A DNA stretch of 64,000 nt from Gemmatimonadota bacterium (GCA_039587755.1 JBDHBD010000001.1:199947-263946); one strand, 5' to 3'; numbered from the stretch's first letter, positions 2,177 to 61,406 are shown. Made by a program: numbers and translations. The notes: generated by a model from the sequence alone, not told the origin.

Positions 2177-4852
2177 GTGTCGACGAAGTTGCGCGTTTAT
2201 GAAGTAGCCGAGGAACTCGGCGTGGAGTCGAGCCAGCTCATCCAGATGCTGCGCGAGATGGATGTACCCGTGCGCAGTCACATGTCGTCGGTTGAGCCGG
2301 ATCAGATTGCACGTCTGCATGCGCGACTGGAGCGAGACCGACGTACGGAGCTGGCGACCGGAACGAGCCGCGTGGCTACCACGCGCCGACGCCGGCGCCG
2401 GCGGCAGCCCAAGGCGATCGGGGAGGCAGCCGCGACAGAGGAGGTGGCGGTCGAAGCTCCGGTGGAGGTGGTGGAGCTGGCAGAAATAGAGCTCGAAGCG
2501 CCGTCGGAAGACCTGGCCGCGATCTCCGAGGAGGAGCTGGTCGCGGAGGAAGCCGAGGTTCCTGAGGAGACCCTGGCTGCCGAGCTCGAAGGGCCGGCGG
2601 TGGGGGAGGTCGTGCCCTCCGAGGAGATCGAAGGAGCCGAAGAAGCCGAGGGAGCCGAAGAGGCACCGGCCCCGGAGGCAGAGATCGAGCCGGAGGTCGA
2701 GGCGCCGCTGACCGAAGAGCATCTGGTTGAGGCCGAGCTCGCGGTGGAGCGGGAAGAGAGAGAGCCGTTCGGGGAGACTCGCCCGACACGAAAGCCGAAG
2801 CCAGCGCGCCGCGATATGCCGGCAGTCCCGACGGCGTCCGCTGCCCCTGGTGGTACGGTCCGAATTCAGGCGGAGGGCTACACGGTCGATGGTCGACGGA
2901 CGTCGCGTCGGCAGCGCCGCAAACGCCGCAGCGTGGATCAGGAGGCGGTCAAAGAGAGCGTCAAGAAGACGCTGGCGTCGATCGAAGCGACACCTCACCG
3001 GAAGCGACGTCGCGATGTGTCCGCGCACGAGGAAGCCGAGCGCGAGCTTCGGGAGCTAGAAGAAGAAGCCGAGACGCAGACTGTTCGGGTCAACGAGTTC
3101 CTTACCGTGGCGGAGCTGGCCGATCTGATCGACGTGTCGCCTCAGCAAGTCATCACGTTCGCGTTCAAGAACCTCGGTCTGATGGTGACCATCAACCAGC
3201 GGCTCGATTTCGATCAGATCGAGCTCATCTGCGAGGCGGCCGGCTACACGGCAATTCGCGAGGAAGGATACGAAGCGGATCTGGCCGAGATCGCCGAGCT
3301 CGAAGACTCGGAAGCGGAGCTGGTGGCCAGGGCGCCGGTCGTCACCGTGATGGGACATGTCGATCACGGGAAGACCTCTCTGCTCGATCTCATCCGCAAG
3401 ACGAACGTCATCGCCGGTGAGGCCGGAGGTATCACGCAGCACATCGGCGCATACGCGGTGATGCTGGATGCCGATCGAACCATCACGTTTCTCGATACAC
3501 CAGGTCACGAGGCCTTCACTGCGATGAGGGCACGCGGCGCGGAAGTCACGGATCTCGTGATCCTGGTCGTCGCGGCTGACGATGCCGTCATGCCGCAGAC
3601 GGTGGAAGCGATCAGCCACGCGCGGAACGCCGGTGTGCCGATGGTGGTGGCGATAAACAAGGTCGATCTTCCGTCCGCCAACGTCGACAGGGTCAAACAG
3701 GAGCTCCTCGCCGAAGAGGTGGTGCTGGAGGAGTTCGGCGGGGAGGTGCTGGCCACTCCTGTCTCGGCCAAGACCGGGGATGGGATCGACGAGTTGCTCG
3801 AGAAGGTGCTTCTGCAGGCCGAGGTGCTTGAGCTGGAGGCCGTACGGGAGGGACCGGCCCAGGGCACGGTCGTGGAGGCGGAGCTGGACCGCGGCCTGGG
3901 ACCGGTGGCCACCGTGCTCGTGCAGCGTGGAACGCTTGCGGTCGGCGATGACTTCGTATGCGGCCTGCAGGGAGGTCGAGTGCGTGCGTTGCTCGATGAG
4001 CGAGGCAACAGCGTACCCCAGGCTGGTCCTTCGACGCCGGTACGTGTGATCGGTCTGGAAGGCGTGCCGCAAGCGGGAGACGCGCTGGTGGAGCTAAGCG
4101 CGGAGCGTGTTCGCGAGATCACGGGCCGCCGACAGCAGCTGGAGCGAGAGAAGGAGCTCCGGCGGCGGGCGCCCGGCACACGCCTGGAGGACATCTTCGA
4201 GCGCATTCAAGCAGGGGAGCAGGCCCGCCTGAATCTGGTGATCAAGGGGGACACCGACGGGTCCGTGCAGGCGCTCCAGGACTCGCTGGAGCGACTCAGT
4301 ACCGATGAGGTCGCGGTTGAGGTGATCCACCGGGCGGTGGGGGGCATCACGGAGTCCGATGTGCTGCTGGCCACCACGAGCGAAGCGCTCATCATCGGCT
4401 TCCACGTTCGCCCGGACGTCAAGGCGCAGGAGGTAGCGGACCGCGAAGGTGTCGAGATCCGCATCTACAACGTGATCTACGAGGCCGTGGAGGACATTCG
4501 TCTGGCGCTGGAGGGCCTGTTGGAGCCCGAGGAGCGCGAGATCACCGTCGGCACAGCTGAGATCCGTGAGCTCTTCCGTGTTCCCAAGGTCGGAACCGTC
4601 GCGGGTTGTTACGTCAGCGCGGGCACCATGCGGCGAAACCTCCCCGTCCACCTGCTTCGCGACCAGGTCCAGATCTACGATGGAAAGATCTTCAGCCTCA
4701 AGCGGTTCAAGGATGACGTGCGCGAGGTACGTGAAGGATACGAGTGTGGCCTCGCCATCGAGGGTTACAACGACATCAAAGTCGGCGACGTGATCGAGTG
4801 CTACGAGGTCCAGGAGTTCGCGCGGACCCTCTCGGGGGAGTCCGCCTCCTGA
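2177..4852 (+). CDS. infB: Translation initiation factor IF-2
   Basis: G-domain motifs (GHVDHGKTSLLD, DTPGHEAF, NKVD) and a C-terminal beta-barrel. A GTG at 2177 is preceded by GGAGGA (2164-2169). The N-terminal region is acidic E/A-rich low complexity. The longer ORF from 2012 is rejected as the start. Confidence 0.93.
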   Translation: MSTKLRVYEVAEELGVESSQLIQMLREMDVPVRSHMSSVEPDQIARLHARLERDRRTELATGTSRVATTRRRRRRRQPKAIGEAAATEEVAVEAPVEVVELAEIELEAPSEDLAAISEEELVAEEAEVPEETLAAELEGPAVGEVVPSEEIEGAEEAEGAEEAPAPEAEIEPEVEAPLTEEHLVEAELAVEREEREPFGETRPTRKPKPARRDMPAVPTASAAPGGTVRIQAEGYTVDGRRTSRRQRRKRRSVDQEAVKESVKKTLASIEATPHRKRRRDVSAHEEAERELRELEEEAETQTVRVNEFLTVAELADLIDVSPQQVITFAFKNLGLMVTINQRLDFDQIELICEAAGYTAIREEGYEADLAEIAELEDSEAELVARAPVVTVMGHVDHGKTSLLDLIRKTNVIAGEAGGITQHIGAYAVMLDADRTITFLDTPGHEAFTAMRARGAEVTDLVILVVAADDAVMPQTVEAISHARNAGVPMVVAINKVDLPSANVDRVKQELLAEEVVLEEFGGEVLATPVSAKTGDGIDELLEKVLLQAEVLELEAVREGPAQGTVVEAELDRGLGPVATVLVQRGTLAVGDDFVCGLQGGRVRALLDERGNSVPQAGPSTPVRVIGLEGVPQAGDALVELSAERVREITGRRQQLEREKELRRRAPGTRLEDIFERIQAGEQARLNLVIKGDTDGSVQALQDSLERLSTDEVAVEVIHRAVGGITESDVLLATTSEALIIGFHVRPDVKAQEVADREGVEIRIYNVIYEAVEDIRLALEGLLEPEEREITVGTAEIRELFRVPKVGTVAGCYVSAGTMRRNLPVHLLRDQVQIYDGKIFSLKRFKDDVREVREGYECGLAIEGYNDIKVGDVIECYEVQEFARTLSGESAS

Positions 4853-4912
4853 TCGCCACCCGGGCCGGCGCGAGGGCGACGGGCGTCGACGGCAATAAGA
4901 GCGGCAGCGAAG

Positions 4913-5197
4913 ATGGCAGTTGTTGGAGTCGTGCGGTGGGTCCTTCACTTGCCTGGCTGCGACTCGCTGAAAGCGAAGCGCGCCGTTGTTCGAAGCCTGC
5001 GAGACCTGTTGATCAACAAGCACCACGTCTCGGCGGCGGAAACCGACTTCCACGATCGCTGGCAAAAGACGGAGCTATGGGCGGCACTGGTCGCCACGGA
5101 CCGGCGCTACGCCGAGAAGGTGATTTCCCGGCTCGACCGCTCCATTTCAGCCGACCCCCGCGCCCACGTGATCGAGCGCGAGACCGTCTTCTATTGA
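4913..5197 (+). CDS. DUF503-family protein (YlxP-like)
   Basis: 94-aa ORF in the conserved slot between infB and rbfA. Its size and position match the YlxP/DUF503 family. Confidence 0.7.
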   Translation: MAVVGVVRWVLHLPGCDSLKAKRAVVRSLRDLLINKHHVSAAETDFHDRWQKTELWAALVATDRRYAEKVISRLDRSISADPRAHVIERETVFY

Positions 5198-5225
5198 GCC
5201 CCGTCAGCCGGGGCACACGCCCAGC

Positions 5226-5594
5226 ATGAGCCAACAGAGGACCGCACGGCTGAACGAACTTCTTCGCAGAGAGCTCTCTCGACTGATCCGACGTGAGCTG
5301 AAGGATCCGCGTGTTCGCACCGCCACCGTGACCGATGTGGTCGCCGCACCGGACCTCACGCACGCCACCGTCTACATCCGAACGTTGGACGAAGAAGTCC
5401 CGGCCGAGCAGGCAGTGGAGGGTCTCGTGAGCGCGTCCGGATTCATGCGGCGTCGCCTCGGCAAGCAGCTTCGTCTCAGGCGGGTGCCGGAGTTCCACTT
5501 CGAGGTGGACCACACGCTGGAGCGTGCCAGTCGAATCGAACAACTGTTGGCAGAGACGCAGCAGGATCGACCCGATGAGCCAGGTTCCGTCTGA
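5226..5594 (+). CDS. rbfA: Ribosome-binding factor A
   Basis: 122 aa; the N-terminus RLNELLRRELSRLI is typical of RbfA. It sits downstream of infB. Confidence 0.9.
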   Translation: MSQQRTARLNELLRRELSRLIRRELKDPRVRTATVTDVVAAPDLTHATVYIRTLDEEVPAEQAVEGLVSASGFMRRRLGKQLRLRRVPEFHFEVDHTLERASRIEQLLAETQQDRPDEPGSV

Positions 5595-6498
5595 CGGTGG
5601 CCTCCTGCTCGTGGACAAGCAGGAGGGGCCGACCTCACACAATGTCGTCGCAAGCGCGCGGTTGGCCATCGGCCTGCGCCGGATCGGTCACGCAGGGAGC
5701 CTTGATCCGTTCGCCACGGGGCTCCTCCTTCTGCTCGTGGGCCGGGCCACGAGGCTCGTCCAGTACTTCCACATGCTCGACAAGCGGTACAGCGCCGCGC
5801 TGATACTTGGTGTGGAAACCGATACCCATGACAACACGGGAGACGTCAGCAGGCGCAGCGAAGTCTGGCGACAGGTTTCGGAGGACGGGCTTCGCGACGC
5901 GCTTCGCTCGCTTACCGGCCAGACGCTTCAGCGTCCTCCCGCCTTCTCGGCCAAACAGGTCGCGGGTCAAAGGGCGCACCGTGCCGCCCGAGCGGGTGAA
6001 GAGGTCCAACTGGAGGCCGTTCCGGTGACGGTTGCTCGTCTCGAGCTCACCGGATTTCGGCCTCCCGTGGTCGAGGTCGAGGCAGACGTGTCGACAGGGA
6101 CGTACGTGCGCGCCCTGGCGCGTGACCTGGGGCGCGCCCTGGGCTGCGGAGCACACCTCACGGCGCTCAGGCGGACAGCAATCGGTCCCTTCGGGGTCGG
6201 CGATGCGTGGCCGGGCGACCGGCTCGCGTCCGTCCCTCTCGAAGTGCCCCATTGGCGTTCGCCCGGTGAGGCACTCGATTGGCTGCCGTGGCGCCAGCTC
6301 GAGGCCTCCGAGCTCGCGCACGTGCGGGAAGGCCGGAGGATACCCGCCGAAGATATTCACTGGCCGGCCCAGCGACCCGTCGGGTCCGAGGGTGACGCCG
6401 AGGTGCCGGTGGTCCTGATGGCGGGCGACCGTCTCATCGCGATCGCCCAACGTCAGGCGGCGGAGTTGCAGCCCCGCAAGGTCCTTTCGAAGGACTGA
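5575..6498 (+). CDS. truB: tRNA pseudouridine(55) synthase TruB
   Basis: Motifs LLLVDKQEGPTSH and GHAGSLDPFATGLLLL (catalytic Asp region). The start ATG at 5575 overlaps the rbfA 3' end. Confidence 0.9.
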   Translation: MSQVPSDGGLLLVDKQEGPTSHNVVASARLAIGLRRIGHAGSLDPFATGLLLLLVGRATRLVQYFHMLDKRYSAALILGVETDTHDNTGDVSRRSEVWRQVSEDGLRDALRSLTGQTLQRPPAFSAKQVAGQRAHRAARAGEEVQLEAVPVTVARLELTGFRPPVVEVEADVSTGTYVRALARDLGRALGCGAHLTALRRTAIGPFGVGDAWPGDRLASVPLEVPHWRSPGEALDWLPWRQLEASELAHVREGRRIPAEDIHWPAQRPVGSEGDAEVPVVLMAGDRLIAIAQRQAAELQPRKVLSKD

Positions 6499-34237: not shown

Positions 34238-34372
34238 AGAGTGGTGGGACCCGTGCCGCGTGAAGGCTGCGGCGGACCCGCGAGGCGTCTGACGGGTCTC
34301 ACTCGGGCGTGCGGGCGAGGCTCGCTGATCCAGGCCGAGGTTGCGGGACAGTACGCAAAGAGGAGGCAGACG

Positions 34373-34834
34373 ATGAGGAGGGTGCCGACGATCTGGCGGG
34401 TGGTCTTTCCACTACTCGTATTGGCTCCGGTAGTGGCCGTGTTGGGATGTGCATCGGGTGGAAGCCAGATCTACGCCGACGAAGCCTATGGAGCGGGAAC
34501 GCCCCAACTGGCCGTCTCGGCCTTTCTGACCGCCGCGAAGCAGTCAGACTACGGTACGATGGCGAACCTGTTCGGCACGGAAGACGGTCCCGCGGAAGTG
34601 AAGTGGGGCCGGGCGGATGTCGAGCAAAGGATGTACGTGCTGGCCGCCCTGCTCAATCACCGGTCGTACGAGCTCCGACTTCTGAACGTGGCGGGGGAAC
34701 CGAACACGATACGTGTGATCGCGGACATGGTCGGCACACAGAACGGGAATGTATCGGTCCCGTTCGTCACGATCTCGAACGGTGGCCGCTGGTTCGTCTC
34801 GCAGGTGATGACGCGAGCGCTGGACTCCGGCTGA
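34373..34834 (+). CDS. Hypothetical lipoprotein
   Basis: ATG preceded by GAGGAGG. Signal peptide with lipobox LGCAS. No recognisable domain. Confidence 0.5.
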   Translation: MRRVPTIWRVVFPLLVLAPVVAVLGCASGGSQIYADEAYGAGTPQLAVSAFLTAAKQSDYGTMANLFGTEDGPAEVKWGRADVEQRMYVLAALLNHRSYELRLLNVAGEPNTIRVIADMVGTQNGNVSVPFVTISNGGRWFVSQVMTRALDSG

Positions 34835-36566: not shown

Positions 36567-37418
36567 ATGGCGGGGACGCTGTTCCTGGTGAGCACGCCGA
36601 TCGGTAACCTTTCCGATGTGAGTGAGCGTGCGCTGGGCGTGCTTGGCGAGGTGGACATCTGCTACGCCGAGGACACCCGGCACACCGGTCGCATGCTGGC
36701 GCGCCTGGGCGTCGACGTCCCGCTGCGGTCGCTCCACGGTCACAACGAGGTGGCCAGAGTGAGAGAGATCGTCGAACGGCTGGACCGCGGCGAGCGTTGT
36801 GCGCTGGTGAGCGATGCCGGCACGCCGGCCATCTCCGATCCAGGAAGGGCCGTCGTGGGCGCGGTTCACGATGCTGGTTTCCCGGTCGTTCCCATTCCGG
36901 GGCCCTCAGCCGTAACGGCGGCCATCGCTGCGAGCGGCCTGTCGGCCGACCGGTTTCTCTTCTTGGGCTTCGCGCCCCGCCGCGGGTCGTCGCGTCGAGA
37001 CTGGCTCAATCAAGTCGCGGACTCTTCGTTCACGGTCGTGATCTTCGAGTCACCGCGCCGGGTTCAGCGGCTGCTGGAGGAGTTGAGCGACGCCGGTCTC
37101 GCTGAGCGCAAGTGCATCGTGTGCCGTGAGCTGACGAAGCTTCACGAGGAGATCTTGCGCGGAAGTGTGGCGCAGGTGGGTCGGCAACTCGACGAGGAGA
37201 GACTTCGCGGCGAGTTCACCATCGTCGTGGAAGGCGGCAAGGTCGAGCGCGAGACCCCGCCGGAAGCCGAAGCACGAGCAGCGGCGCTCGCGGTAGCCGG
37301 AGAGGGCACCCGGCAGATCGCGTCTCGACTGCAAGCCGAGTTCTGCCTCGCGCGCAACGAGGCGTACAGATGCGCCCTGCTCGCCGTGCAGACCGCCGGC
37401 GAGTCGATCGATGAGTGA
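36567..37418 (+). CDS. rsmI: 16S rRNA (cytidine1402-2'-O)-methyltransferase RsmI
   Basis: Tetrapyrrole-methylase-fold N-terminus LFLVSTPIGNLSDVSERAL and ...YAEDTRHTG.... Confidence 0.85.
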   Translation: MAGTLFLVSTPIGNLSDVSERALGVLGEVDICYAEDTRHTGRMLARLGVDVPLRSLHGHNEVARVREIVERLDRGERCALVSDAGTPAISDPGRAVVGAVHDAGFPVVPIPGPSAVTAAIAASGLSADRFLFLGFAPRRGSSRRDWLNQVADSSFTVVIFESPRRVQRLLEELSDAGLAERKCIVCRELTKLHEEILRGSVAQVGRQLDEERLRGEFTIVVEGGKVERETPPEAEARAAALAVAGEGTRQIASRLQAEFCLARNEAYRCALLAVQTAGESIDE

Positions 37419-40400
37419 ACCGAGCTCGCTCGCCTCTGTGCGTGAGGGAACGCTGCGGCTGCGACGTCGGGCGCTGGTCGCCGTCGTCACCGCCGGTCTG
37501 GCCGGGTCGGGGTGTGTTCTCCTGCTGCTCACGTTGCTTCCCGATCGCACGCTGACTGCACCAGGGGCTCTCCTGTCCCTTGCAGGCACGGGGCTCTTCG
37601 TCACCTCGATCCTGGCCGCGGTCTACGGGAGCCATCGCGTGATCGGCCGACTCACGCCCCGCCGGCTCGCTCTTGAGGCCGAGGGCCCGTCGGGGCTGGG
37701 CACCGGCGATCTTCTGGCCGCGCTGGAGCTGGAGTCGGGAGAAGGGTCGGGCTCGGCATCGCTGGCGAGCGAGCACGTCACGCGAGTAGCGAAGCGTGTC
37801 GGCGACCTCGACACAGCCGGGTTGTTCCCGCACAGTGCGCGCCGCTGGGCTCGCAGGCTTCGTGTCGCGCTCACGTCCGCAGGCCTGGTCGTGTCGTTGC
37901 TGGGGCTGAGTGCCCTCACGCGTCCGGAGTCGACGAAGGCGGCCGCGATCGCCATGGCCACGCCGTGGCGTGCCGTCCTCCCCGCACCCCGTCCTCCGAT
38001 CCTGGTGGAGCCCGGCCACGCACAGGTGGCCCGCGGCGACAGCCTTAGCGTACGAGTGCTGGCACCCAGCCGGTCGCGCGTGGACCTCGTGTGGCAGGTC
38101 GTGGGAGAGAAGAGACGCGGCCGGCAGATAGACGTGACGCCCGACGGCACGGGCTCCGAAACGATCCCCTCGGTCGTCGCGCTGACCCGGTATTGGGTGG
38201 AGGGATTGGACGGAGTGTCGAGCGACACGTTCGCGATCCAGCCGCTGGAACCACTGCTGGTGGAGCAGCTGCACGTCGTGATGTCCTATCCGTCGTACCT
38301 GGGGCGTCCGCCCGACAGCATCGCGGCCCCCCTCCCGACATTGGTCATGCCGGCCGGCACGAGAATCGAGCTGTCCGGTCGCGCGAACTACAGCCTCGTG
38401 GAGGTCCACCTCGCCTTCCGACCTCTCACGCTGAGCTCGGACGCCGCCGAACGACCCGGCTCATCCGCTCGGACGGCGGCGCCAACAAGCATCGACGTGG
38501 ACGCGCACCATTTCGGCGGGCAGATCCAACCAGTGTTCAGCGGCGAGTGGACCTGGCACCTGCGCGCCGCCGATGCCCCGGGAGAGCCTGTCCCGCCCGC
38601 GCCGATCGAAACGCTGGTGATTCCGGATAGCGTTCCGCGGGTCCGTGTGCTCTTCCCGGCCGCCGATACGGCGCTCCGGGGCGACGCCGTGCTGCCCCTG
38701 GTCGCGGAGGCGCGGGATGACATCGGTCTGCGATCCGTGGAGCTTGTGAGTTGGCTTGGATCGGCGCCCGCTGACCAAGCAGGCCCACGCGTTGAGCGCC
38801 TCGGCCCGGAGCGCGCCGGAGACAGTCGGGCCCTCGTGCGACCGCTGCTCGATCTGCGCGACAGGGAGCTGTTACCGGGTGACACGGTCTATTACGTCGT
38901 GCGGGCGACCGACGCCAATCCGACCCATTCATCGGCGAGCTCCGACACATTCCGCGTTTGGCTGCCGACGCTGGCCGACATGGGCGTCGCGCGGGCCGAG
39001 CAAATGCAGGAGCTGGCGAGCGCGACGGAGGCGCTCGAGGCGGCTGCCGGCGATCTGGAGCGTGCGGCGAGAGAAGAGGCTCGGCGCGCGACGTCGCCGG
39101 AAACAGGCGATCCGGCGCCGCGTCCGACGCCAGACTCGCCCTCGGCGAGCTCGAAGGCGCTGTCCGAGCGGTCCGCGCTGCAGGACCGCGGCGAGGAGCT
39201 CGGCCGTGAGCTTCGGGAGCTCCAGGACGAGATCGAGCGTCTGCACTCTCAGCTGAAATCTTCGTTGCACGGCGATCCGTCGCTGGAGCGAGAGCTGACG
39301 AAGCTGGCCGAGCAGTGGCGCGAGGGCACGAGCGACCGGCTGGATTCGGCGAGCCGAGAGCTGGGTGAGCGACTCCAAGCGAACGACCCGGGCGCCGCTC
39401 GAGATGCCCTCGACCAGCTGGCGCGGGAGGCGCGAGCGCTGCGTGACCAGCTGCAGGCCACAGGCGGCCGGTTGGAAATGGCGGCACTCGAGCAGTCGCT
39501 GAAGGCCTCGCGCGCGGAAGCGGCGGAGCTGGCAACCCGTCAGGAGGCTGCGACCGATGCGCTCTCGCACCACGCCGACTGGTCCGAGCGAGAAGAGGGT
39601 CTGGCTGACGACGCGGAGGCGCTGGCGAAACGGCTGGGCGACCTGGAGGGCCAGCTAGAAGGGCTAGGTGCCGAGGAGGAGGCGGATTCGTCCGGTGTGG
39701 CTGGTGAGCGTGCCGCTCAGGCCGGTGAACAGATGCGCGAAGCCGCCCGTCTCGCGGCGGCCGAGAAGCGAGAGAGGGACCGTGAAGCGGACGTCGGCCA
39801 GGGCGAGCAGCGGCCGCGGGGAGATCCGACACCCCCGGCGGGCACACCGCCTGCGGCCGAACAGCAGGCTCGCAAAGCGACGGAGAATCTGCAACGAGCG
39901 GCGGAGGCGCTGGATGCGGCCGGTTCGGATTTGTCGGGCGAGCGGGACGACGCAGCCCTGGCGACTCTGGCTCGGGCCCGAACCGAGGCCCTTCAGTTGG
40001 CAGGCGAAGAACTGGGCTTGCTCGAGGCCAGGCCTGACGAGACGGCGCGCGGTCGGCAGGCTGCCCTCCGCCAGGGACTCGATAATCTCGCGCAACGCCT
40101 GGCCGAGGCTCGCGACGCGGGCGCCTTCGGGGACCGAGCGATGACGGCGCAGGTCGATGCCGCGACTCGCGCAATGGACTCGGCGATCGAGCGGCTGTCT
40201 GAAACGGGACGCAGCGCCGCCGCCGCCCAGGCGCACCGGGACGCCATTGAAGCCCTCAACGATCTGGCGCTGCAGCTTCTGGAGGCAGAGCAATCCAGCA
40301 GCACCGCCTCGGCTGGAGCGGCGGGTCAGGAGGCCAGGGAGCGCATGTCGGCTCTGGCACAGCAGCAAGGCGGGGTGACAGAGCGCACGCGAGCCCTGCA

Positions 40401-40923
40401 CCGCCTGGATGCGGAAGGGCGCGACGTTCGTCCGCAAGCGGAACAGCTCGCCCGCGAGCAGGCGCGCATCGCGGAGGAACTGGAATTGCTGGGGCGGGAC
40501 GAGGATGAGCTGCTCGGCGAGCCGGCGGCGCTGGCTCGCGAGGCGCACGAGCTCACAGACCGATTGACGACCGGCCGCGTGGACTCCGAGACCCTGGACA
40601 GACAGCGCGGCCTCTTCCGTCGGATGCTCGACGCCGGTCGGTCGCTGGAGCAGGACGAGTTTGACACGGAGCGCCGCGAGTCGCGTACCGGCGAGGCCGT
40701 TTTGCGTGACGTGCCGGAGCTCGACCCGAGCCTCCTGGCCGGACCCCGCTTCCCGCTTCCGGAGGAGACGGCCCTCGGTCGACTTCCACCGTACTATCGT
40801 CGCCTGGTCCTCGAGTACTTCGATCGGCTGAACAACGCGGAGGCTGGCGGGCTAGATCGAGCGACCGATCAGGAGCAAGGTGGTGATGAGCGGGTCGAAG
40901 GACGGCATGGTGGGCGTGAGTAG
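37411..40923 (+). CDS. Giant membrane-anchored coiled-coil protein of unknown function (DUF4175-like?)
   Basis: 1170 aa. Two N-terminal TM helices, a ~450-aa beta-rich region, a ~540-aa Ala/Glu/Arg/Leu coiled coil and a conserved-looking C-terminus (LPPYYRRLVLEYFDRL). The start overlaps rsmI by 8 bp. Confidence 0.6.
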   Translation: MSEPSSLASVREGTLRLRRRALVAVVTAGLAGSGCVLLLLTLLPDRTLTAPGALLSLAGTGLFVTSILAAVYGSHRVIGRLTPRRLALEAEGPSGLGTGDLLAALELESGEGSGSASLASEHVTRVAKRVGDLDTAGLFPHSARRWARRLRVALTSAGLVVSLLGLSALTRPESTKAAAIAMATPWRAVLPAPRPPILVEPGHAQVARGDSLSVRVLAPSRSRVDLVWQVVGEKRRGRQIDVTPDGTGSETIPSVVALTRYWVEGLDGVSSDTFAIQPLEPLLVEQLHVVMSYPSYLGRPPDSIAAPLPTLVMPAGTRIELSGRANYSLVEVHLAFRPLTLSSDAAERPGSSARTAAPTSIDVDAHHFGGQIQPVFSGEWTWHLRAADAPGEPVPPAPIETLVIPDSVPRVRVLFPAADTALRGDAVLPLVAEARDDIGLRSVELVSWLGSAPADQAGPRVERLGPERAGDSRALVRPLLDLRDRELLPGDTVYYVVRATDANPTHSSASSDTFRVWLPTLADMGVARAEQMQELASATEALEAAAGDLERAAREEARRATSPETGDPAPRPTPDSPSASSKALSERSALQDRGEELGRELRELQDEIERLHSQLKSSLHGDPSLERELTKLAEQWREGTSDRLDSASRELGERLQANDPGAARDALDQLAREARALRDQLQATGGRLEMAALEQSLKASRAEAAELATRQEAATDALSHHADWSEREEGLADDAEALAKRLGDLEGQLEGLGAEEEADSSGVAGERAAQAGEQMREAARLAAAEKRERDREADVGQGEQRPRGDPTPPAGTPPAAEQQARKATENLQRAAEALDAAGSDLSGERDDAALATLARARTEALQLAGEELGLLEARPDETARGRQAALRQGLDNLAQRLAEARDAGAFGDRAMTAQVDAATRAMDSAIERLSETGRSAAAAQAHRDAIEALNDLALQLLEAEQSSSTASAGAAGQEARERMSALAQQQGGVTERTRALHRLDAEGRDVRPQAEQLAREQARIAEELELLGRDEDELLGEPAALAREAHELTDRLTTGRVDSETLDRQRGLFRRMLDAGRSLEQDEFDTERRESRTGEAVLRDVPELDPSLLAGPRFPLPEETALGRLPPYYRRLVLEYFDRLNNAEAGGLDRATDQEQGGDERVEGRHGGRE

Positions 40924-42769
40924 ACGAACGGCTCTTCGGACCCGTCGATGCAGCGAGAGACTGGCTCGGGCGGCGTTCCTGACCCTGCTCCTGCAGACGG
41001 GGTTCGGTCTCGCGGGACACGTGAGACATGCAGGGGCTCAGGAAGGACCATCGGCACGCATCGAGCGTTCGCTGGATCACGCGAATCGTCTGCTCCGGGC
41101 CGGCCGGGCGGAGGAAGCTAGCAGGGTCCTCGAAACGCTGCTCGAAGAGCATCCGACTTCAGCGGACGCGCTGGCCCTCCTGTTTGGCGTTACCGGCGAG
41201 CTCGGCAAGCCAGAGGCTTTCCTGTCTTTCATCGCGACGGCAGCCCGCCACGGCGGGACGGGTGAGGCGGCTCTCCAGGAGCTATGGGTGCGCGGTCTTC
41301 TGCGTGCCGAGCATGCCGATGAAGCGCGAACCGTTGCAGAACGGTGGTTGGAAGAGAGAAAGAGTGAGCCGCGGGCGTATGCCGCGCTCGCAGCGGTCCA
41401 CACAGCGACCGGTCGGCCGAGCCGCGCGATCGAGAGTCTCGAGCGGGGTCGTCGGCAGGTAGGGGACCGCACGCTGTTTCGGGCTGAGCTCGCGGTCTTA
41501 TACGCGGAGGTGGGCCGGTTCGAGGCGCTGGTCGCGGAGTGGCTGGCGCGGCTGGCGGAGCGGCCTCCGGATCTCGGAGCCGTGCAGCGGGAGATCACGG
41601 CGCTCGAATCACGTGCGGCCGCAATCGAAGCCCTGTGGTCTGCAGCCGCCGAGACAAACCGTGAACCGGAGATGCAGCAGTCCGTGGCTCTGCTCGCGTT
41701 GCGCTTCGGCAGGGCCGATGCGGCACGCCGGATTCTGAGTCTCGCGCTCCCCTCGCTGCCAGCGGGCCAAGCGTCGGTAGCTCTGGCCGCGTACGTGCGT
41801 GAAGCCGAGGAAGCCGCGCTGGTGGAGGAAGCTGCCTGGGGGGCGATGCGGCTGACGGAGGTGGCCGCGTCGCCGCGCGAACGCTGGCGCTGGCTGGCGC
41901 TTGCCGGAGAGAGAGCGCTCGAGGCGGGCGATACCGCGAGTGCTCTGGCCTCGGCGGAACGGCTGGTCGCACAGGCGCCTCCGGGGAGTGAGGGTGCCAC
42001 TCGTGCGCTGGAGCGGTTGGTCACGCTGCTGGCCGCACGACCCTCCGGAATCGACGCGGCGACGCGGCAGCTGGAGGCCTACGTTCGGGCGCACCCGGAC
42101 TCCAGCATGAGAATCGCCGATCTCACGCTCGCCGTTGCTCAGGGCCAGGTGCGTGCAGACCGACGCGCGGCCGCAGGCGAGCTCTTGCGGGAGGCACCGG
42201 TTGGAGAAGGTGCGGCCAGGCATGTTCTGAATGCGGCGCTGGCAGTGCTCGAGCTACAACGAGGACGGCAGGCGGGAGCGCTCGAGCTATTACGCAGCGC
42301 GGCAACAGGCGAGGGGGTTCCAGAGGATATGCGGACGCGCTGGATCTCGCTGCTGGCGGTCCTCGAATCGGCTGATTCGTTGGAAGTCGCGTCGCTCGGC
42401 CGCGCACTCGAGACAGCGGCCGCTGCGCCGGCAGCCTTCGATCCCACCGCGCTGCTGGAGCAGTGGACCGGGCGCCCGGTGGCCAGCGGTCGAGCGGCAG
42501 CGCTCGCCTTTCTGGCCGGTGAGCTGGAAGCGACCGGGCGGACGGACGCGGCGGTCGCCGTTCACGAAGCGCTTGTGCGGGAGCTTCCTGATAGTCCCGA
42601 GACGGCAGCGGCCATGCTCGCTCTGGCGCGGCACGCGCTCGGTACCGATTCGGCGCGTAGCCGAACGTGGCTCGAGCGCCTGGTAACCCGATTTCCAGAC
42701 AGTGCCGTCGCACCCCTTGCCCGCCGAGTGCTCGCGGAGCTGAGCGGACGCGGGCCGGCGGGCGATTAG
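40880..42769 (+). CDS. Secreted TPR-like helical repeat protein
   Basis: Signal peptide AFLTLLLQTGFGLAGHVRHAGAQE, then Ala/Leu-rich TPR-like repeats over ~600 aa. Start uncertain (40880-40940 has several candidates); overlaps the upstream gene. Confidence 0.55.
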   Translation: MVMSGSKDGMVGVSRRTALRTRRCSERLARAAFLTLLLQTGFGLAGHVRHAGAQEGPSARIERSLDHANRLLRAGRAEEASRVLETLLEEHPTSADALALLFGVTGELGKPEAFLSFIATAARHGGTGEAALQELWVRGLLRAEHADEARTVAERWLEERKSEPRAYAALAAVHTATGRPSRAIESLERGRRQVGDRTLFRAELAVLYAEVGRFEALVAEWLARLAERPPDLGAVQREITALESRAAAIEALWSAAAETNREPEMQQSVALLALRFGRADAARRILSLALPSLPAGQASVALAAYVREAEEAALVEEAAWGAMRLTEVAASPRERWRWLALAGERALEAGDTASALASAERLVAQAPPGSEGATRALERLVTLLAARPSGIDAATRQLEAYVRAHPDSSMRIADLTLAVAQGQVRADRRAAAGELLREAPVGEGAARHVLNAALAVLELQRGRQAGALELLRSAATGEGVPEDMRTRWISLLAVLESADSLEVASLGRALETAAAAPAAFDPTALLEQWTGRPVASGRAAALAFLAGELEATGRTDAAVAVHEALVRELPDSPETAAAMLALARHALGTDSARSRTWLERLVTRFPDSAVAPLARRVLAELSGRGPAGD

Positions 42770-42782
42770 GGGGATTCGCGAA

Positions 42783-44078
42783 ATGAGCCCCCGGTCGGGT
42801 CCCGCAGCACGCGCCGCCCGTCTTCGGTTGCTGGTGTTCGTCGCAGCGGCGGCCGTAAGCCTGACAGCCGCACCGGCGAGCAGCCAGCTGTTGGTGCCGA
42901 TGGACGAGCGACAGGAGAACCACCTCAAGGCGTATGGCCTCGCCTATCGTGTGCTCTCGTCGGGCGAAGAGGCGGAATGGCTACTCAACTTCCGTGCAGG
43001 GTCTTTTCTCATCCCCGACACCGAGGCGAACCTGCGCGCGGCGGCGCTTCTCGGGGTCACGGTGGAGCGAATCGACCCTCGAAGCCTGGCCGATCTGCGA
43101 GGCCAGCTGGAAGGCGGCAACATGGAATCGGTGCCGCTCGAGAAGGCCCCTCTCGTCGCCGTGTATACACCCCCGAACAGCTCGCCGTGGGACGATGCAG
43201 TCACGATGGCGCTCGAGTATGCGGAGATCCCTTACGAGAAACTGTGGGATCGGGAGGTGCTGAGCGGCGCGTTGGACCGGTTCGACTGGCTGCACCTGCA
43301 TCACGAAGACTTCACCGGACAGTACTCGAAGTTCTACCTGACCTACGCGGCCGCCGAATGGTTGCAGGAAGAGGTGGGGCGCAATGAGGCAATGGCGGTC
43401 GACCTGGAGTTTCCGTCGGTGCCCGCCCTCAAGAAGGCGGTGGCCCGGCGGATCCGGGATTACGTCGAACAGGGTGGGTTCATCTTCGCGATGTGTACGG
43501 CGACGGAAACGCTCGAGCTCGCGCTGGCCGCCGAGCAGGTTGACATCGCGGCCTCTTTTTCCGACGGGACACCACCCGATCGGGACGCAGAGCGGCGCTT
43601 GGACTGGGACGCCGCGATGGCGTTCGAGGGCGCGTCGCTGATCACCGATCCTTCGCTGAGCGCCTTCAGCGACATCGACGGCCATCAGGTCAACACACCG
43701 TGGCGCAAACCGCTGGCCACCTTTTCCTTGTTCGAATACGCGGCAAAGGTCGATCCAGTGCCCGCCATGTTGACGCAAAGTCATGAACGGGTGCTGCCGG
43801 ACTTTTACGGGCTCACCACGAGCTTCAGCCGTGAGCGGCTCAAGGCGGGCGTGACGGTCCTCGCTGAAGAGGCGAACACCGGACGGATCAAGTACCTGCA
43901 CGGACAGTTCGGCGAGGGAACTTTCACCTACCTCGGGGGGCACGATCCGGAAGACCCCCGCCACTTGATCGGGGATCCGCCGACCGATCTCGATTTGGAG
44001 CGGCATTCACCGGGTTATCGCCTCATCTTGAACAACGTGCTCTTTCCTGCCGCCCGAAAGAAGAAGTTGAAGACGTGA
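42783..44078 (+). CDS. Secreted protein with putative class-I glutamine-amidotransferase-like (ThuA/DUF4159-like) fold
   Basis: Signal peptide LLVFVAAAAVSLTAAPASSQ. The pattern LVAVY...WLHLHHEDF...YVEQGGFIFAMC resembles the protein at 60564-61406. 431 aa. Confidence 0.5.
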   Translation: MSPRSGPAARAARLRLLVFVAAAAVSLTAAPASSQLLVPMDERQENHLKAYGLAYRVLSSGEEAEWLLNFRAGSFLIPDTEANLRAAALLGVTVERIDPRSLADLRGQLEGGNMESVPLEKAPLVAVYTPPNSSPWDDAVTMALEYAEIPYEKLWDREVLSGALDRFDWLHLHHEDFTGQYSKFYLTYAAAEWLQEEVGRNEAMAVDLEFPSVPALKKAVARRIRDYVEQGGFIFAMCTATETLELALAAEQVDIAASFSDGTPPDRDAERRLDWDAAMAFEGASLITDPSLSAFSDIDGHQVNTPWRKPLATFSLFEYAAKVDPVPAMLTQSHERVLPDFYGLTTSFSRERLKAGVTVLAEEANTGRIKYLHGQFGEGTFTYLGGHDPEDPRHLIGDPPTDLDLERHSPGYRLILNNVLFPAARKKKLKT

Positions 44079-45001
44079 AGTTGCGCCGCTCGTCGCCCCG
44101 CGGGCGTGGAAACGGTCTCCGCGTCTCCAGGCTCGGTGCACCGGTCCGCGGTGGGTACGGGCGTCGCTCCCGTGAGCGGGGCTACCGACGCGCGCTCGCC
44201 ACCGGTCTGATTCTCTCGGTGCTCGCCCACACCGTCGTGCTCGTGCTGTCGGGTCGGCTTCCTTTTGGCGCTCTGCGTGGCCCGATTCCCGAGGATGCGG
44301 AGCTTCCGCGGGCTCCGGGCCTGGTCATCGTGGGGATCACCGAGGTGCAGAGCCCGGCTCCTCCCGAAGAGGCGCGTGCGGAGGCGCGCCGACCGGAGGA
44401 GACAGAGGTGGTCCGTATCGCGCCGCTGCCGCCGGAGGGCGGGGGAGAAGAGGAGGCAGCGGCGGAAGAGGCGGAAGAGGAGCCGGAACCTTCGCTCACG
44501 AACGCCGAGCGACTGCGCCCGCGCTACGGCGACCGTCGGGTATGGATCGATCCGGACGAACTGGACCTGTATGGTGAGCGTCTGGCCCGATACGCCCGTG
44601 CGGACAGCGCCGTGCGTGCGATTCTCCGGAACTGGCTGGACAGCCTGGCGCTCAGTGAGGAGGAGCGCCGCCGTGCCCTCGACTGGACGCTGAAAAAGGG
44701 CGACGAGCGCTGGGGAATCTCGCCCGAAGGGCTCCACCTGGGAGACATCACGATCCCCATCCCGTTTTCTCTCGCACCCAGTGGCCCCCAGCGTCGTGAG
44801 TTCGAGCAGGCACTGCGTGACCTGCAGGAGATCAGGCGGCAGGACCTGCAAGCCGACCTGGAGGAGAACAGGAGGGAGCGGGCCGAGGAGATGCGCAGGC
44901 GATCGCGCGAAGAGGCGGAGCGTCGACGCCAGGCCGAGGAAGCCGACAGCACTCTCTCGGTCCTGCCCGCGCGCGTTGGCATTGGAGACAACCGCCGTTA
45001 A
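44075..45001 (+). CDS. Hypothetical bitopic membrane protein with acidic linker
   Basis: Arg-rich N-terminus, one TM helix (LATGLILSVLAHTVVLVLS), an E/A-rich acidic low-complexity region and an R/E-rich helical C-terminus. ATGA overlap with the upstream gene. Confidence 0.5.
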   Translation: MKLRRSSPRGRGNGLRVSRLGAPVRGGYGRRSRERGYRRALATGLILSVLAHTVVLVLSGRLPFGALRGPIPEDAELPRAPGLVIVGITEVQSPAPPEEARAEARRPEETEVVRIAPLPPEGGGEEEAAAEEAEEEPEPSLTNAERLRPRYGDRRVWIDPDELDLYGERLARYARADSAVRAILRNWLDSLALSEEERRRALDWTLKKGDERWGISPEGLHLGDITIPIPFSLAPSGPQRREFEQALRDLQEIRRQDLQADLEENRRERAEEMRRRSREEAERRRQAEEADSTLSVLPARVGIGDNRR

Positions 45002-58416: not shown

Positions 58417-60594
58417 GTGAACGTGACGGACGAACTCGGTCGTAAGGTGCTGGAGTTCCACGTCGAGGGCATGAATTGTCCCGACTGCGTCCGCCGCGTG
58501 CGGGACCGACTGGCCAGCGTGGATGGCGTCTTCGCCGCGGAGGGGAGTCCCGTAGCACGCCGTCTCACGGTGACGGTCGATGAAACGCGTGTCGATCGTG
58601 CGCGCATCGGACGCGAGCTCGGGAAGATTGGTTTCGTGGCCCGGGAGGAAGCTGCGGCGGACGCTCCCTCACGAATCTGGTCTACCCCACACGCTGTTCG
58701 CACCTACGTGTCTGCGGTGCTGTTCGGTCTCGCGCTGCTTCTCGAGCTGGTCGGTGTGGGCGCGGCTCCTGTGCAGATCCCACCCGTCGGTGTTCCGTGG
58801 ACCGACCTCCTGTTTGTGACCGCCGCGCTCGTCGGAGGCTGGAACTTCATCCCCGCCGGCCTCCGCGCCGTCGTGGCACGACGGCTCGACATGAACTTCC
58901 TCATGACGGTCGCGATCTTGGGTGCGATCGGGATCGGGGAGTTCCTGGAAGCCGGGGCGATCGCCTTTCTGTTCTCGGTTGCTGAACTCCTCGAAGGTTA
59001 CGCCGTCGAGCGCGCCCGACACTCCATCCACGCGCTCATGCAGCTGTCGCCCGACCGCGCGAGGCTTCTGAAAGGCGGTGAAGAGGTCGTGGTTGCCGCA
59101 GACGAGCTGCACCGGGGCGACCTCGTTGTCGTACGCGGTGGAGACAAGATCCCGGCCGACGGCACCGTGCTCGATGGGGGTGCCGCCGTGGACGAGTCGA
59201 CGATCACGGGGGAATCGATCCCCGCGGACCGGACCCCGGGCGACGAAGTGTTCGCGGGCACGATCTGCGCCGGCGGTTACCTGAAGATCCATGTGACACG
59301 CGTGGCGGGTGAGACCACGCTGGCGGAGATCGTCCGAATCGTCGAGGAGGCCGAATCGCGTCGTTCCCACACGGAGCGGTTCGTGGAGCGCTTTGCTAGG
59401 TACTATACGCCGTCCGTGACCGTGGCCGCCGTGCTGGTCGTCGCTATCCCCACGCTGGCGTTCGGTGGCGCATTCACCACCTGGTTCGTGCGCGGCCTCA
59501 CCCTGCTCGTGATCGCGTGTCCGTGCGCTCTCGTCATCTCGACGCCCGTTGCGGTAGTCAGCGGCATCACGGCGGCGGCCAGGCATGGTGTGCTCATCAA
59601 GGGTGGGCAATTCCTGGAGGCGATGGGTGGAGTCGCCTCGGTCGCTTTCGACAAGACGGGGACGCTGACCCATGGGCACCCCGAAGTGACGGAGGTGATC
59701 GCGCTCCGGGGCACCCAAGACGAAGTGCTCTCGCTAGCGGCCGCCGTGGAAAACCGTGCGGAGCACCCGATCGCACGGGCGATCGTCCGAGCCGCGGAAG
59801 AGCGAGGCCTGTCGGTGACGGACCGAGTGGTCCGTGGGTTCGAGTCCCAACTGGGGAGCGGGGTCTGGGCACAGGTCGACGGGGTGGAGATCCGGGTCGG
59901 ATCCGAAGATCTGTTCGAGGACGGCGCACCGCGAGACCGTCTCGCGGCGCTGCACAGGTCCGGCAGGACTGCCGTGCTGGTGGGGCCGGCGGCCGCACCG
60001 GTGGGCGTCGTGGCGGTTGCCGATCGTCCTCGAGAAGCGGCCCCGGAGGCGATTCGCGCGCTACGGTTAGCGGGAGTACATACAGTGATGCTGACAGGCG
60101 ACCACCGCGAGACGGCGAACGCGATCGCAGCCGAGCTGGGCATCGACGAGGTCTATGCCGGATTGAAGCCGGCGGACAAAGTGGACGCCGTGCAGCGGCT
60201 GGAGGCCGAGCACGGGCACGTCGCCATGGTTGGAGACGGGGTCAATGACGGACCGGCCCTCTCGGTCGCGAGTGTGGGGATCGCCATGGGAGCAGCGGGG
60301 AGCGACGTAGCCCTGGAGACCGCCGATGTCGCTCTGATGTCGGACGATCTGTCGCGACTGCCTTATCTGCACGCCCTCTCACGTACGGGCCGTCGCGTCA
60401 TCCGCCAGAACATTATCGCATCGCTCGTCGCCAAGTTCGCCCTCGCGATTGGCGTCCCCTTCGGCGTCGTCTCTCTGGTCGCGGCGGTTCTGATCGGAGA
60501 CATGGGCGCTTCGCTGGCCGTGACGACCAACGCGCTGCGGCTCGCTCGAGTGCGACCCCCGCCTCACCGAGCCGAGGCAGAGGACAGAGCGTAG
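58417..60594 (+). CDS. Heavy-metal translocating P1B-type ATPase (Zn/Cd/Pb-type)
   Basis: N-terminal HMA domain GMNCPDC, TM CPC motif (IACPCALVIS), DKTGT phosphorylation site, and GDGVNDGPAL hinge. Confidence 0.9.
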   Translation: MNVTDELGRKVLEFHVEGMNCPDCVRRVRDRLASVDGVFAAEGSPVARRLTVTVDETRVDRARIGRELGKIGFVAREEAAADAPSRIWSTPHAVRTYVSAVLFGLALLLELVGVGAAPVQIPPVGVPWTDLLFVTAALVGGWNFIPAGLRAVVARRLDMNFLMTVAILGAIGIGEFLEAGAIAFLFSVAELLEGYAVERARHSIHALMQLSPDRARLLKGGEEVVVAADELHRGDLVVVRGGDKIPADGTVLDGGAAVDESTITGESIPADRTPGDEVFAGTICAGGYLKIHVTRVAGETTLAEIVRIVEEAESRRSHTERFVERFARYYTPSVTVAAVLVVAIPTLAFGGAFTTWFVRGLTLLVIACPCALVISTPVAVVSGITAAARHGVLIKGGQFLEAMGGVASVAFDKTGTLTHGHPEVTEVIALRGTQDEVLSLAAAVENRAEHPIARAIVRAAEERGLSVTDRVVRGFESQLGSGVWAQVDGVEIRVGSEDLFEDGAPRDRLAALHRSGRTAVLVGPAAAPVGVVAVADRPREAAPEAIRALRLAGVHTVMLTGDHRETANAIAAELGIDEVYAGLKPADKVDAVQRLEAEHGHVAMVGDGVNDGPALSVASVGIAMGAAGSDVALETADVALMSDDLSRLPYLHALSRTGRRVIRQNIIASLVAKFALAIGVPFGVVSLVAAVLIGDMGASLAVTTNALRLARVRPPPHRAEAEDRA

Positions 60595-61406
60595 AGGAAC
60601 AGGTTGACCCCCATGCGGAGCGCCTGCTCTCGCACCTCCGGCGGGTCGCCATGCACCGCGGGATCCTCCCAGCCGTCGCCCAGATCGCTCTGATAGCTGT
60701 AGAAGACGGCGAGTCGTCCGTCCAGGAAGATCCCCAAACCCTGCGCTGGCAGACCGTCGTGTTCGTGGATCTTTGGCAGCCCTTCCGGAAAGTCGTACAG
60801 GAGGTGGTAAACGGGGTGGTCGGTCGGCACGTCCACCAGGTCGCGGTCCGGGAAGAGCCGCTTCACCTCACGTCGAAAAGACTCGTCCAGACCGTAGTTG
60901 TCATCCGCGTGGAGGAAACCACCGGCCTGCAGATGCCCGCGCAGGCTGCGAAGCTCGACCTCGCTGAGACGGATGTCCCCGTGTCCGGTGAGGTACAGGT
61001 AGGGGTAGTCGCTCAGCTCCGGGTCCGACAGACGGACCTCTACGGGGCGCGCACCGACCTGCACCGCCGTACGCTCCCGCAGGGCCTCGAGTAGATTTGG
61101 GAGGCTGGACGGATTTGCGTACCAGTCGCCCCCGCCCTCGTAGCGCACGCGCGCGACCGTCGGGGCAGCTGCCGCATCCGTGGTCTGCGCGTCGCGTGCG
61201 AACAGAGCGGGGCACCCCTCGGCCAGCACCGCGCCGGCCACGCCGGCCGAGGCTGCCACAAGCAGGGCCTGGGGAAACCAGTTCCCGCGGCGCTGCCGGA
61301 CGCGACAGTGGGGGCAGTGACGCGAATGGTCCGGAATGTGAGTCTCGCAATACCTACAGGGCTTCAATCCGCCCTCCCGTGTCATGCGCGCGAACCATCG
61401 TCGCAC
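60564..61406 (-). CDS. DUF4159-like (ThuA-like / class-I GATase-fold) protein with N-terminal zinc ribbon and TM helix
   Basis: N-terminal C-x2-C-x9-C-x2-C (CRYCETHIPDHSRHCPHC), one TM helix, then a domain with YPYLYLTGHG...LRGHLQAGGFLHADDNYG as I recall for DUF4159. Convergent with the ATPase gene, overlapping it by 31 bp. Confidence 0.55.
   Translation of the reverse strand: MRRWFARMTREGGLKPCRYCETHIPDHSRHCPHCRVRQRRGNWFPQALLVAASAGVAGAVLAEGCPALFARDAQTTDAAAAPTVARVRYEGGGDWYANPSSLPNLLEALRERTAVQVGARPVEVRLSDPELSDYPYLYLTGHGDIRLSEVELRSLRGHLQAGGFLHADDNYGLDESFRREVKRLFPDRDLVDVPTDHPVYHLLYDFPEGLPKIHEHDGLPAQGLGIFLDGRLAVFYSYQSDLGDGWEDPAVHGDPPEVREQALRMGVNLFLYALSSASAR

Follow-up and report, generated by a model that had tools for sequence, protein, structure and literature searches.

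What kind of protein is encoded by a gene found downstream of rsmI in Gemmatimonadota, and what could it do in the cell envelope? The question is raised by a stretch of 64,000 nucleotides from a Gemmatimonadota bacterium (GCA_039587755.1 JBDHBD010000001.1:199947-263946), called here the window, which carries a gene for a protein of 1170 amino acids at 37411-40923; this protein is labelled BIG in what follows. The initial annotation of the region compared it to DUF4175 proteins, which accompany DUF4159 proteins in the MoxR operons of Alphaproteobacteria. The results described below indicate that BIG very probably belongs to the DUF4175 (PF13779) superfamily as a divergent member, of a type of about 1100 amino acids present in Gemmatimonadota and in other lineages of the Fibrobacterota-Chlorobiota-Bacteroidota (FCB) group. 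Structure prediction gives it a likely architecture of three transmembrane (TM) helices, three periplasmic immunoglobulin (Ig)-like domains, a helical-bundle rod and conserved C-terminal helices. The complete explanation, in which this identity and architecture are combined with a role as envelope scaffold, inspires somewhat more belief than doubt.

Gene and Family Assignment

37411..40923, plus strand: BIG, probable DUF4175-superfamily protein of 1170 amino acids; ATG start, overlapping the rsmI stop by 8 nt

BIG is a genuine gene. Its open reading frame (ORF) of 1170 codons has a G+C content at third codon positions (GC3) of 78%, in a window with 66% GC, and a record identical to its sequence exists at NCBI/JGI under the title "hypothetical protein". 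An exhaustive HMMER profile search, metagenomes included, retrieved 15,711 cluster representatives at E<=0.001, 3161 of them with E<=1e-30, and its best 150 homologues were all full-length, with about 1100-1150 amino acids; this search replaced a word-index search that returned only about 20 proteins, even with a profile of 63 sequences, as the low-complexity helical part swamps it. The high GC content of the genome (66%) and the many long, overlapping ORFs found antisense to BIG might point to a spurious ORF or to a low-complexity artefact; such antisense ORFs, however, are a usual by-product of high GC, and an artefact, the chance of which is negligible, is ruled out by the thousands of full-length homologues and by the synteny conserved across Gemmatimonadota loci, with the GC3 value and the confident fold prediction obtained with AlphaFold2 (AF2) also speaking against it. 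The 1170-amino-acid gene initially annotated is thus confirmed.

The family of BIG is not recognized by direct searches. Indeed, Pfam and NCBIfam scans of BIG gave no match, PF13779 being absent even at E<=10, and the protein stays under the gathering cut-off of this model (27.3 bits). Its full-length relatives behave differently: 15 out of 41 match PF13779 at E<=0.01, and six positive relatives, examined singly, scored 40-117 bits, all over the cut-off. The top scorer, P0128 (116.6 bits, model positions 185-753 of 825), is aligned with BIG by BLASTP at E=2e-43 over residues 141-1138, both C-terminal blocks included; moreover, hhalign matched BIG residues 74-615 to P0018, another PF13779-bearing protein, with a probability of 99.5%, and one relative is titled "DUF4175 family protein" by NCBI. 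BIG is therefore assigned to the DUF4175 superfamily because its full-length relatives pass PF13779, although BIG itself escapes the model. The likeness to DUF4175 first proposed was in this way recovered through the relatives, whereas the direct search with the model was negative; the assignment is entirely transitive. The initial interpretation as a whole, right on DUF4175 and DUF4159 but not on the MoxR and alphaproteobacterial setting, is partly supported.

The general layout agrees with this placement. By its description, TIGR02302 starts with two to three TM helices and continues with a long region outside the cytoplasm, partly of low complexity; BIG, with three N-terminal hydrophobic segments and a long region predicted to lie outside, fits this DUF4175 layout, and it has in common with the family the N-terminal membrane anchor, the Ig-like domains, the long helical low-complexity region and the DUF4159 partnership. 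It differs from the family in falling under any Pfam threshold, in having no linked MoxR/DUF58 genes and in its partners, a tetratricopeptide repeat (TPR) protein and a protein of 431 amino acids (P431). The named relatives come from Gemmatimonadota, KSB1, Cloacimonetes, Edwardsbacteria and Bacteroidota, and the alphaproteobacterial framing of the initial annotation does not hold for the relatives found; a tblastn search of plasmids with a PF13779 protein provided no useful alphaproteobacterial example, and the NCBIfam scan of the six PF13779-positive relatives assigned no family. In the BIG subfamily the PF13779 match reaches only position ~755 of 825, and the C-terminal blocks consequently have no demonstrated match to the alphaproteobacterial seed. 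In the literature searched, DUF4175 is mentioned only in passing, for a weak and probably irrelevant N-terminal match of Acinetobacter baumannii AdvA, and DUF4159 only in a Pfam paper.

Membrane Anchor and Ig-like Domains

37468..37629, plus strand: TM1-TM2 hairpin, residues 20-44 and 52-73; Kyte-Doolittle peaks 2.36 and 2.01, AF2 helices 8-41 and 54-80
37630..37857, plus strand: predicted cytoplasmic helical loop, residues 74-149; 11 Lys+Arg, GLxxGxLxxALEL motif, topology by the positive-inside rule
37858..37920, plus strand: TM3, residues 150-170, from hydropathy and AF2
38002..38964, plus strand: three tandem Ig-like beta-sandwich domains, residues ~198-280, 281-404 and 405-518; AF2 strands, Foldseek, hhalign to P0018 and P0171

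Hydropathy detects three hydrophobic segments in BIG, at residues 20-44, 52-73 and 150-170, each with a corresponding AF2 helix (8-41, 54-80 and 140-170) and with a small helical region, 83-138, preceding the last of them; the two TM helices originally counted must therefore be raised to three. Lys+Arg residues are distributed unevenly, the N-terminal tail having 4, the 45-51 loop only 1 and the 74-149 loop 11, and the positive-inside rule suggests from this distribution that the N terminus is inside and that residues 171-1170 are outside. The periplasmic side is proposed for everything following TM3 on account of this charge distribution, of the Ig-like domains and of the signal peptides of the partner proteins.

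The Ig-like domains had no place in the first description of the protein. When compared to the Protein Data Bank (PDB) with Foldseek, this region matched tandem Ig/fibronectin type III ectodomains, such as LILRB3, KIT and PTP-delta Ig1-3, with E values from 1e-7 to 1e-5 over ~350 columns. It contains the invariant residues D406, P409, P416, D436 and D501, and it represents the part that BIG has in common with PF13779 and with the remote relatives.

The Helical Region

38965..40521, plus strand: A/E/R/L-rich, all-helical rod, residues 519-1037; helices of 15-66 amino acids, Pro-rich disordered linkers 562-576 and 796-813
39388..40575, plus strand: internal helical repeats of ~120-140 amino acids, residues 660-800, 812-935 and 936-1055, from hhalign self-comparison

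Residues 519-1153 are all helical in the AF2 prediction, and the content of A, E, R, L, Q and D is 64-78% across residues ~540-1080. This region was initially annotated as an almost uninterrupted heptad-like coiled coil of ~540 amino acids, about 75 nm long, which would make BIG a two-TM protein bearing a near-continuous dimeric coiled coil, used as a long tether or ruler. The A/E/R/L richness and the all-helical character of that description were retained, and the local heptad-like amphipathy is well over that of shuffled sequences (0.365 vs 0.224+/-0.017), as a coiled coil would require. The uninterrupted heptad, however, was lost: across the whole helical region the Fourier power at period 3.5 does not exceed what chance would give (z=-0.5), so there is no global heptad phase and no continuous register over hundreds of residues, and AF2 breaks the region into ~16 helices of 15-66 residues each, with ~15 breaks and the two Pro-rich disordered linkers. 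The longest single helix, of 66 residues, would extend for ~10 nm and leaves the 75-nm estimate unsupported; a length of 75 nm is also far above the width of the diderm periplasm.

At least three internal repeats of ~120 residues further disagree with a single coiled coil. In profile-profile comparisons by hhalign, based on the 63-sequence alignment, whose members are 20-40% identical to BIG, segment 812-935 matched 936-1055 with a score of 42 and a probability of 93%, and segment 660-800 matched 812-935 with a score of 35 and a probability of 80%; column-shuffled controls scored 10+/-2, with a maximum of 15, and reversed controls 14-18 for both pairs. The full-length AF2 model has a pLDDT (predicted local distance difference test) of 82 and a predicted TM-score (pTM) of 0.55, and the C-terminal half modelled alone reaches a pTM of 0.66, which suggests that its helices are packed. 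Foldseek searches of the helical half gave no match at E<=0.001, the best having E=0.012 and a TM-score of 0.22; the top neighbours, all non-significant, were vinculin, alpha-catenin, talin and spectrin repeats. Because of the helix breaks, the absent global heptad phase, the internal repeats and the bundle type of these weak neighbours, we read the modelled rod as tandem helical-bundle repeats and not as a single coiled coil, and the long dimeric tether appears very unlikely.

The comparison with spectrin repeats and with the rod domains of vinculin, alpha-catenin and talin concerns the tandem arrangement of all-helical repeats of ~110-140 residues connected by short loops; these proteins are the top, though weak, Foldseek analogues of a protein in which internal repeats are detected. 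None of them, however, has a significant structural or sequence match to BIG, and the known helical-bundle rods are eukaryotic and cytoskeletal, unlike BIG, which is bacterial and, by prediction, periplasmic; thus, the resemblance is to be taken as analogy, not homology.

Conserved C-terminal Blocks

40570..40659, plus strand: C-terminal block A, residues 1054-1083, ..TLxRQxxLFxRLLDAGRSLE..; top 30-residue conservation window (0.675), pLDDT ~90
40747..40836, plus strand: C-terminal block B, residues 1113-1142, ..LPxxYRxLVxxYFxRLN; conserved, motif also seen in remote relatives

The distinct C-terminal block reported at first was substantiated by the 63-sequence alignment, in which conservation over 30-residue windows of BIG peaks at 1054-1083 and 1113-1142. 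In the AF2 model these two blocks are helices predicted with confidence, and they include the invariant residues Q1065, L1073, Y1136 and F1137. The whole last 110 residues of BIG are matched by the six PF13779-positive relatives with E values from 1e-28 to 1e-33. A terminal Y-R-x-L..Y-[FY] motif like that of block B also occurs in remote, MoxR-linked relatives; by eye, a YRxhhxxY[FY] motif closes the remote relatives P0011, P0014, P0016, P0018 and P0020.

Genomic Context and Partner Proteins

40880..42769, plus strand: TPR protein with signal peptide, 629 amino acids; start overlapping the end of BIG, gene position conserved
42783..44078, plus strand: P431, signal-peptide protein of 431 amino acids; 59-76% identity across the phylum, no Pfam, NCBIfam or PDB match
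60564..61406, minus strand: DUF4159 protein; PF13709 at 2.9e-66, 64% identical to the DUF4159 protein of locus L002, usual upstream partner of BIG in Gemmatimonadales

The gene order in the window is glyoxalase (minus strand), thioredoxin, RsmI, BIG, the TPR protein, P431, a third protein (P308) and ValS, with overlapping starts and stops running from rsmI to P308. Synteny was evaluated in 58 Gemmatimonadota loci from species-representative genomes, with counts for each gene limited to the loci in which the sequence suffices, and the block around BIG is syntenic across them: RsmI is upstream of BIG in 49 of 51 loci and P431 downstream in 49 of 50. The core operon consists of BIG, the TPR protein and P431. 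A non-Gemmatimonadota relative from another FCB lineage, the BIG of which is only 23% identical, keeps BIG followed by TPR-P431, with P431 recognized by its hidden Markov model (HMM) at E=3e-186. In a non-Gemmatimonadota locus (L068) two unrelated genes, for a 282-amino-acid protein and a DUF5131 protein, separate BIG from TPR-P431 at 4741-6323, as if a small mobile element had entered the operon.

The DUF4159 partnership suggested by the initial annotation was found in the phylum: a DUF4159 gene is located directly between rsmI and BIG in 27 of 51 loci, all of the Gemmatimonadales-type clade. Loci L041, L048 and L053, of Gemmatimonas sp., have the order DUF4159-BIG-x-P431. In the clade of the window this slot is empty of DUF4159, and the DUF4159 gene of the window lies ~20 kb from BIG, alone between the genes for a Cu-type P-type ATPase and an E1 dehydrogenase. 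The longest ORF of this gene adds an N-terminal CxxC...CxxC before the hydrophobic segment. If translation began instead at a GTG near codon 36, the protein would have an ordinary signal peptide; for this reason, the zinc-ribbon-like extension may be untranslated.

The MoxR-operon setting, on the other hand, was found only near remote relatives. By tblastn no MoxR was found in the 64-kb window or in the 10-kb flanks of the 58 Gemmatimonadota loci, and the neighbours of BIG are RsmI, the TPR protein, P431, P308 and ValS, with no linked MoxR (AAA_3) and DUF58/VWA genes. Remote relatives occur in classical MoxR-DUF58-BatA/VWA operons (L066) or in a MoxR-DUF58-x-DUF4175-DUF4159 arrangement (L067), where DUF4159 adjoins the DUF4175 relative; others (L003, L065) are near an FHA-MoxR gene. 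HMMs of the TPR protein, P431 and P308 gave no match in the MoxR-linked remote loci, and P431 is not related to the 422-amino-acid gene product that follows DUF4159 in L067. One or two genes after the DUF4175 relative, a protein with faint matches to prenyltransferase/squalene-hopene-cyclase repeats is encoded in L066 (14381-15430), L069 (5479-6387) and L005 (5116-6078), so that the MoxR-linked type may have in it a further recurrent partner.

P431 is about twice as conserved as BIG: identities across the phylum are 59-76% for P431 and, outside the closest relative, 28-42% for BIG (means 65.4% vs 33.5%). More than 100 positions are invariant, including H171, H174, E175, D176, C238, H301, H387 and D388. 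Neither Pfam nor NCBIfam matched P431, and no match was obtained among PDB sequences by phmmer and profile searches. An orthologue is named "asparagine synthetase B" by NCBI; nothing found supports this name, which is probably a misannotation. Comparison to DUF4159 by hhalign yielded a single shared motif, LRxYxxxGGFL, with a probability of 9.6%, and 3 of 23 P431 orthologues have a weak Pfam match to DUF4159 (best E=0.044); this resemblance is weak and recurrent, and a distant DUF4159-like fold is possible for P431. As to the TPR protein, residues 545-616 at its C-terminal end gave a sub-threshold match to tol_pal_ybgF (YbgF/CpoB), with E=2.6e-8 and 34.5 bits vs a cut-off of 90.1.

Possible Role in the Cell Envelope

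On these data a mechanism may be drawn, tentatively and short of being probable, in which BIG is anchored in the inner membrane and acts as a structural scaffold for the envelope. Its architecture is by itself likely: the N terminus would be cytoplasmic and followed by the TM1-TM2 hairpin; a cytoplasmic helical loop of ~75 amino acids would lead into TM3, past which the whole chain would be periplasmic, with the Ig-like domains near the membrane and then the rod of tandem helical-bundle repeats, reaching into the periplasm and capped by the two highly conserved C-terminal helices. These distal helices could dock three co-inherited partners, namely the TPR protein, P431 as a putative enzyme, both with a signal peptide, and DUF4159, and so fix their spacing from the membrane. 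BIG would then serve envelope integrity or homeostasis, as is reported for the related MoxR/Bat (cmd) operons, but with no MoxR ATPase gene linked to it. An envelope role is suggested by analogy, since remote relatives are located in MoxR-DUF58-BatA/VWA operons; for one operon, RL3499-RL3502 of Rhizobium, mutation is associated with morphology and envelope defects in the title of an article by Vanderlinde et al. (2011), which PMC5118466 and PMC5700661 cite. According to PMC5700661, Bat/MoxR-type operons typically include TPR proteins and periplasmic proteins with a membrane anchor.

Two known systems are comparable in part. Envelope operons of the MoxR-DUF58-VWA type, to which Bat (Bacteroides aerotolerance) and cmdA-D (RL3499-RL3502) belong, harbour remote BIG relatives, together with TPR and membrane-anchored periplasmic components; they differ in that no MoxR, DUF58, BatA or VWA genes were found in the BIG window and in that BIG matches no Bat Pfam family. 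TolA and its TPR partner CpoB/YbgF offer a similar design, since TolA is anchored in the inner membrane, extends through the periplasm with a long helical domain, ends in a conserved domain for interactions and has an adjacent TPR gene, and the TPR neighbour of BIG is the protein with the sub-threshold tol_pal_ybgF match; however, no sequence similarity between TolA and BIG was detected, BIG has three TM helices and Ig-like domains vs the one TM helix of TolA, and the TolQR/Pal genes are not adjacent to BIG.

Two other functions have to be weighed against a passive scaffold. BIG could serve, as client or adaptor, a MoxR AAA+/DUF58/VWA machine whose genes lie elsewhere in the genome, in a Bat-like system driving the ATP-dependent maturation or insertion of a periplasmic complex: remote relatives do lie inside MoxR-DUF58-BatA/VWA operons (L066, L067) or near an FHA-MoxR gene (L003, L065), and the cytoplasmic loop 74-149 could be the contact site, but the lack of MoxR in the window and in the flanks of all 58 loci, together with the absence of the TPR and P431 partners from MoxR-linked loci, makes this dependence unlikely. 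The same loop would have another meaning if BIG were a trans-membrane sensor, whose Ig-like domains and rod perceive the state of the envelope, such as stretch or periplasm width, and signal via the TM helices to the cytoplasm. Such a reading would account for the TM hairpin, the third TM helix and the conserved 75-amino-acid loop, and vinculin, alpha-catenin and talin, the weak structural analogues, are mechanosensitive bundle proteins; those Foldseek matches, however, are all non-significant, Pfam and NCBIfam scans recognize no output domain in BIG, no regulator gene is conserved nearby and the loop is among the less conserved parts of the protein (0.399 vs 0.59-0.60 for the C-terminal blocks), leaving a sensor distinctly improbable.

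The scaffold also has points against it. The AF2 input alignments for BIG were shallow (14-20 sequences); bundle packing and rod length are approached indirectly, through pTM, helix lengths and weak Foldseek analogues, and the topology is predicted from hydropathy, AF2 and the positive-inside rule. A contact of the C-terminal blocks with any partner is conjectural. Among the presumed partners, the TPR gene evolves fast, tblastn detecting it in no more than 27 of the 50 syntenic loci, and DUF4159 is unlinked to BIG in this genome. Lastly, RL3502 is at most a putative DUF4175 protein.

DUF4175 and DUF4159 are widespread, envelope-associated families without a known mechanism, of which this locus gives a cleaner view. 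A DUF4175 architecture can now be proposed, in which three TM helices are followed by three Ig-like domains, by a helical rod built of repeats and by a conserved C-terminal cap; in Gemmatimonadota DUF4175 is separated from MoxR and travels with the TPR protein and P431, thus supplying testable partners and residues to a family currently without any. BIG itself would be a divergent member of a catalogued family and would not represent a new kind of system; greater novelty is offered by the MoxR-free BIG-TPR-P431 module, with the probably misannotated P431. It can be speculated, with rather little confidence, that BIG, the TPR protein, P431 and usually DUF4159 form an undescribed, MoxR-independent periplasmic machine of the envelope, common to Gemmatimonadota and other FCB-group phyla, in which BIG would be a repeat-built ruler or scaffold and P431 a new periplasmic Cys/His/Asp enzyme, possibly with a DUF4159-like fold.

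Other Genes of the Locus

44075..45001, plus strand: P308, TM-anchored, acidic/Pro-rich protein; GTG start overlapping the P431 stop by 4 nt

The membership of P308 in the BIG module is uncertain; it is found near ValS in many loci, often with other genes between it and P431. The protein, which gives no Pfam match, is made up of a single TM helix, a linker rich in acidic residues and Pro, a middle domain that is conserved (..RADSAVRAILRNWLDSL..WGISPEGLHLGDITIPIPF..) and a tail of high charge. On the other side of BIG, at 34241-34834 (plus strand), a 197-amino-acid protein without Pfam match is encoded between ClpB and a GT2 glycosyltransferase; its position is kept in most Gemmatimonadota loci, with 29-83% identity.

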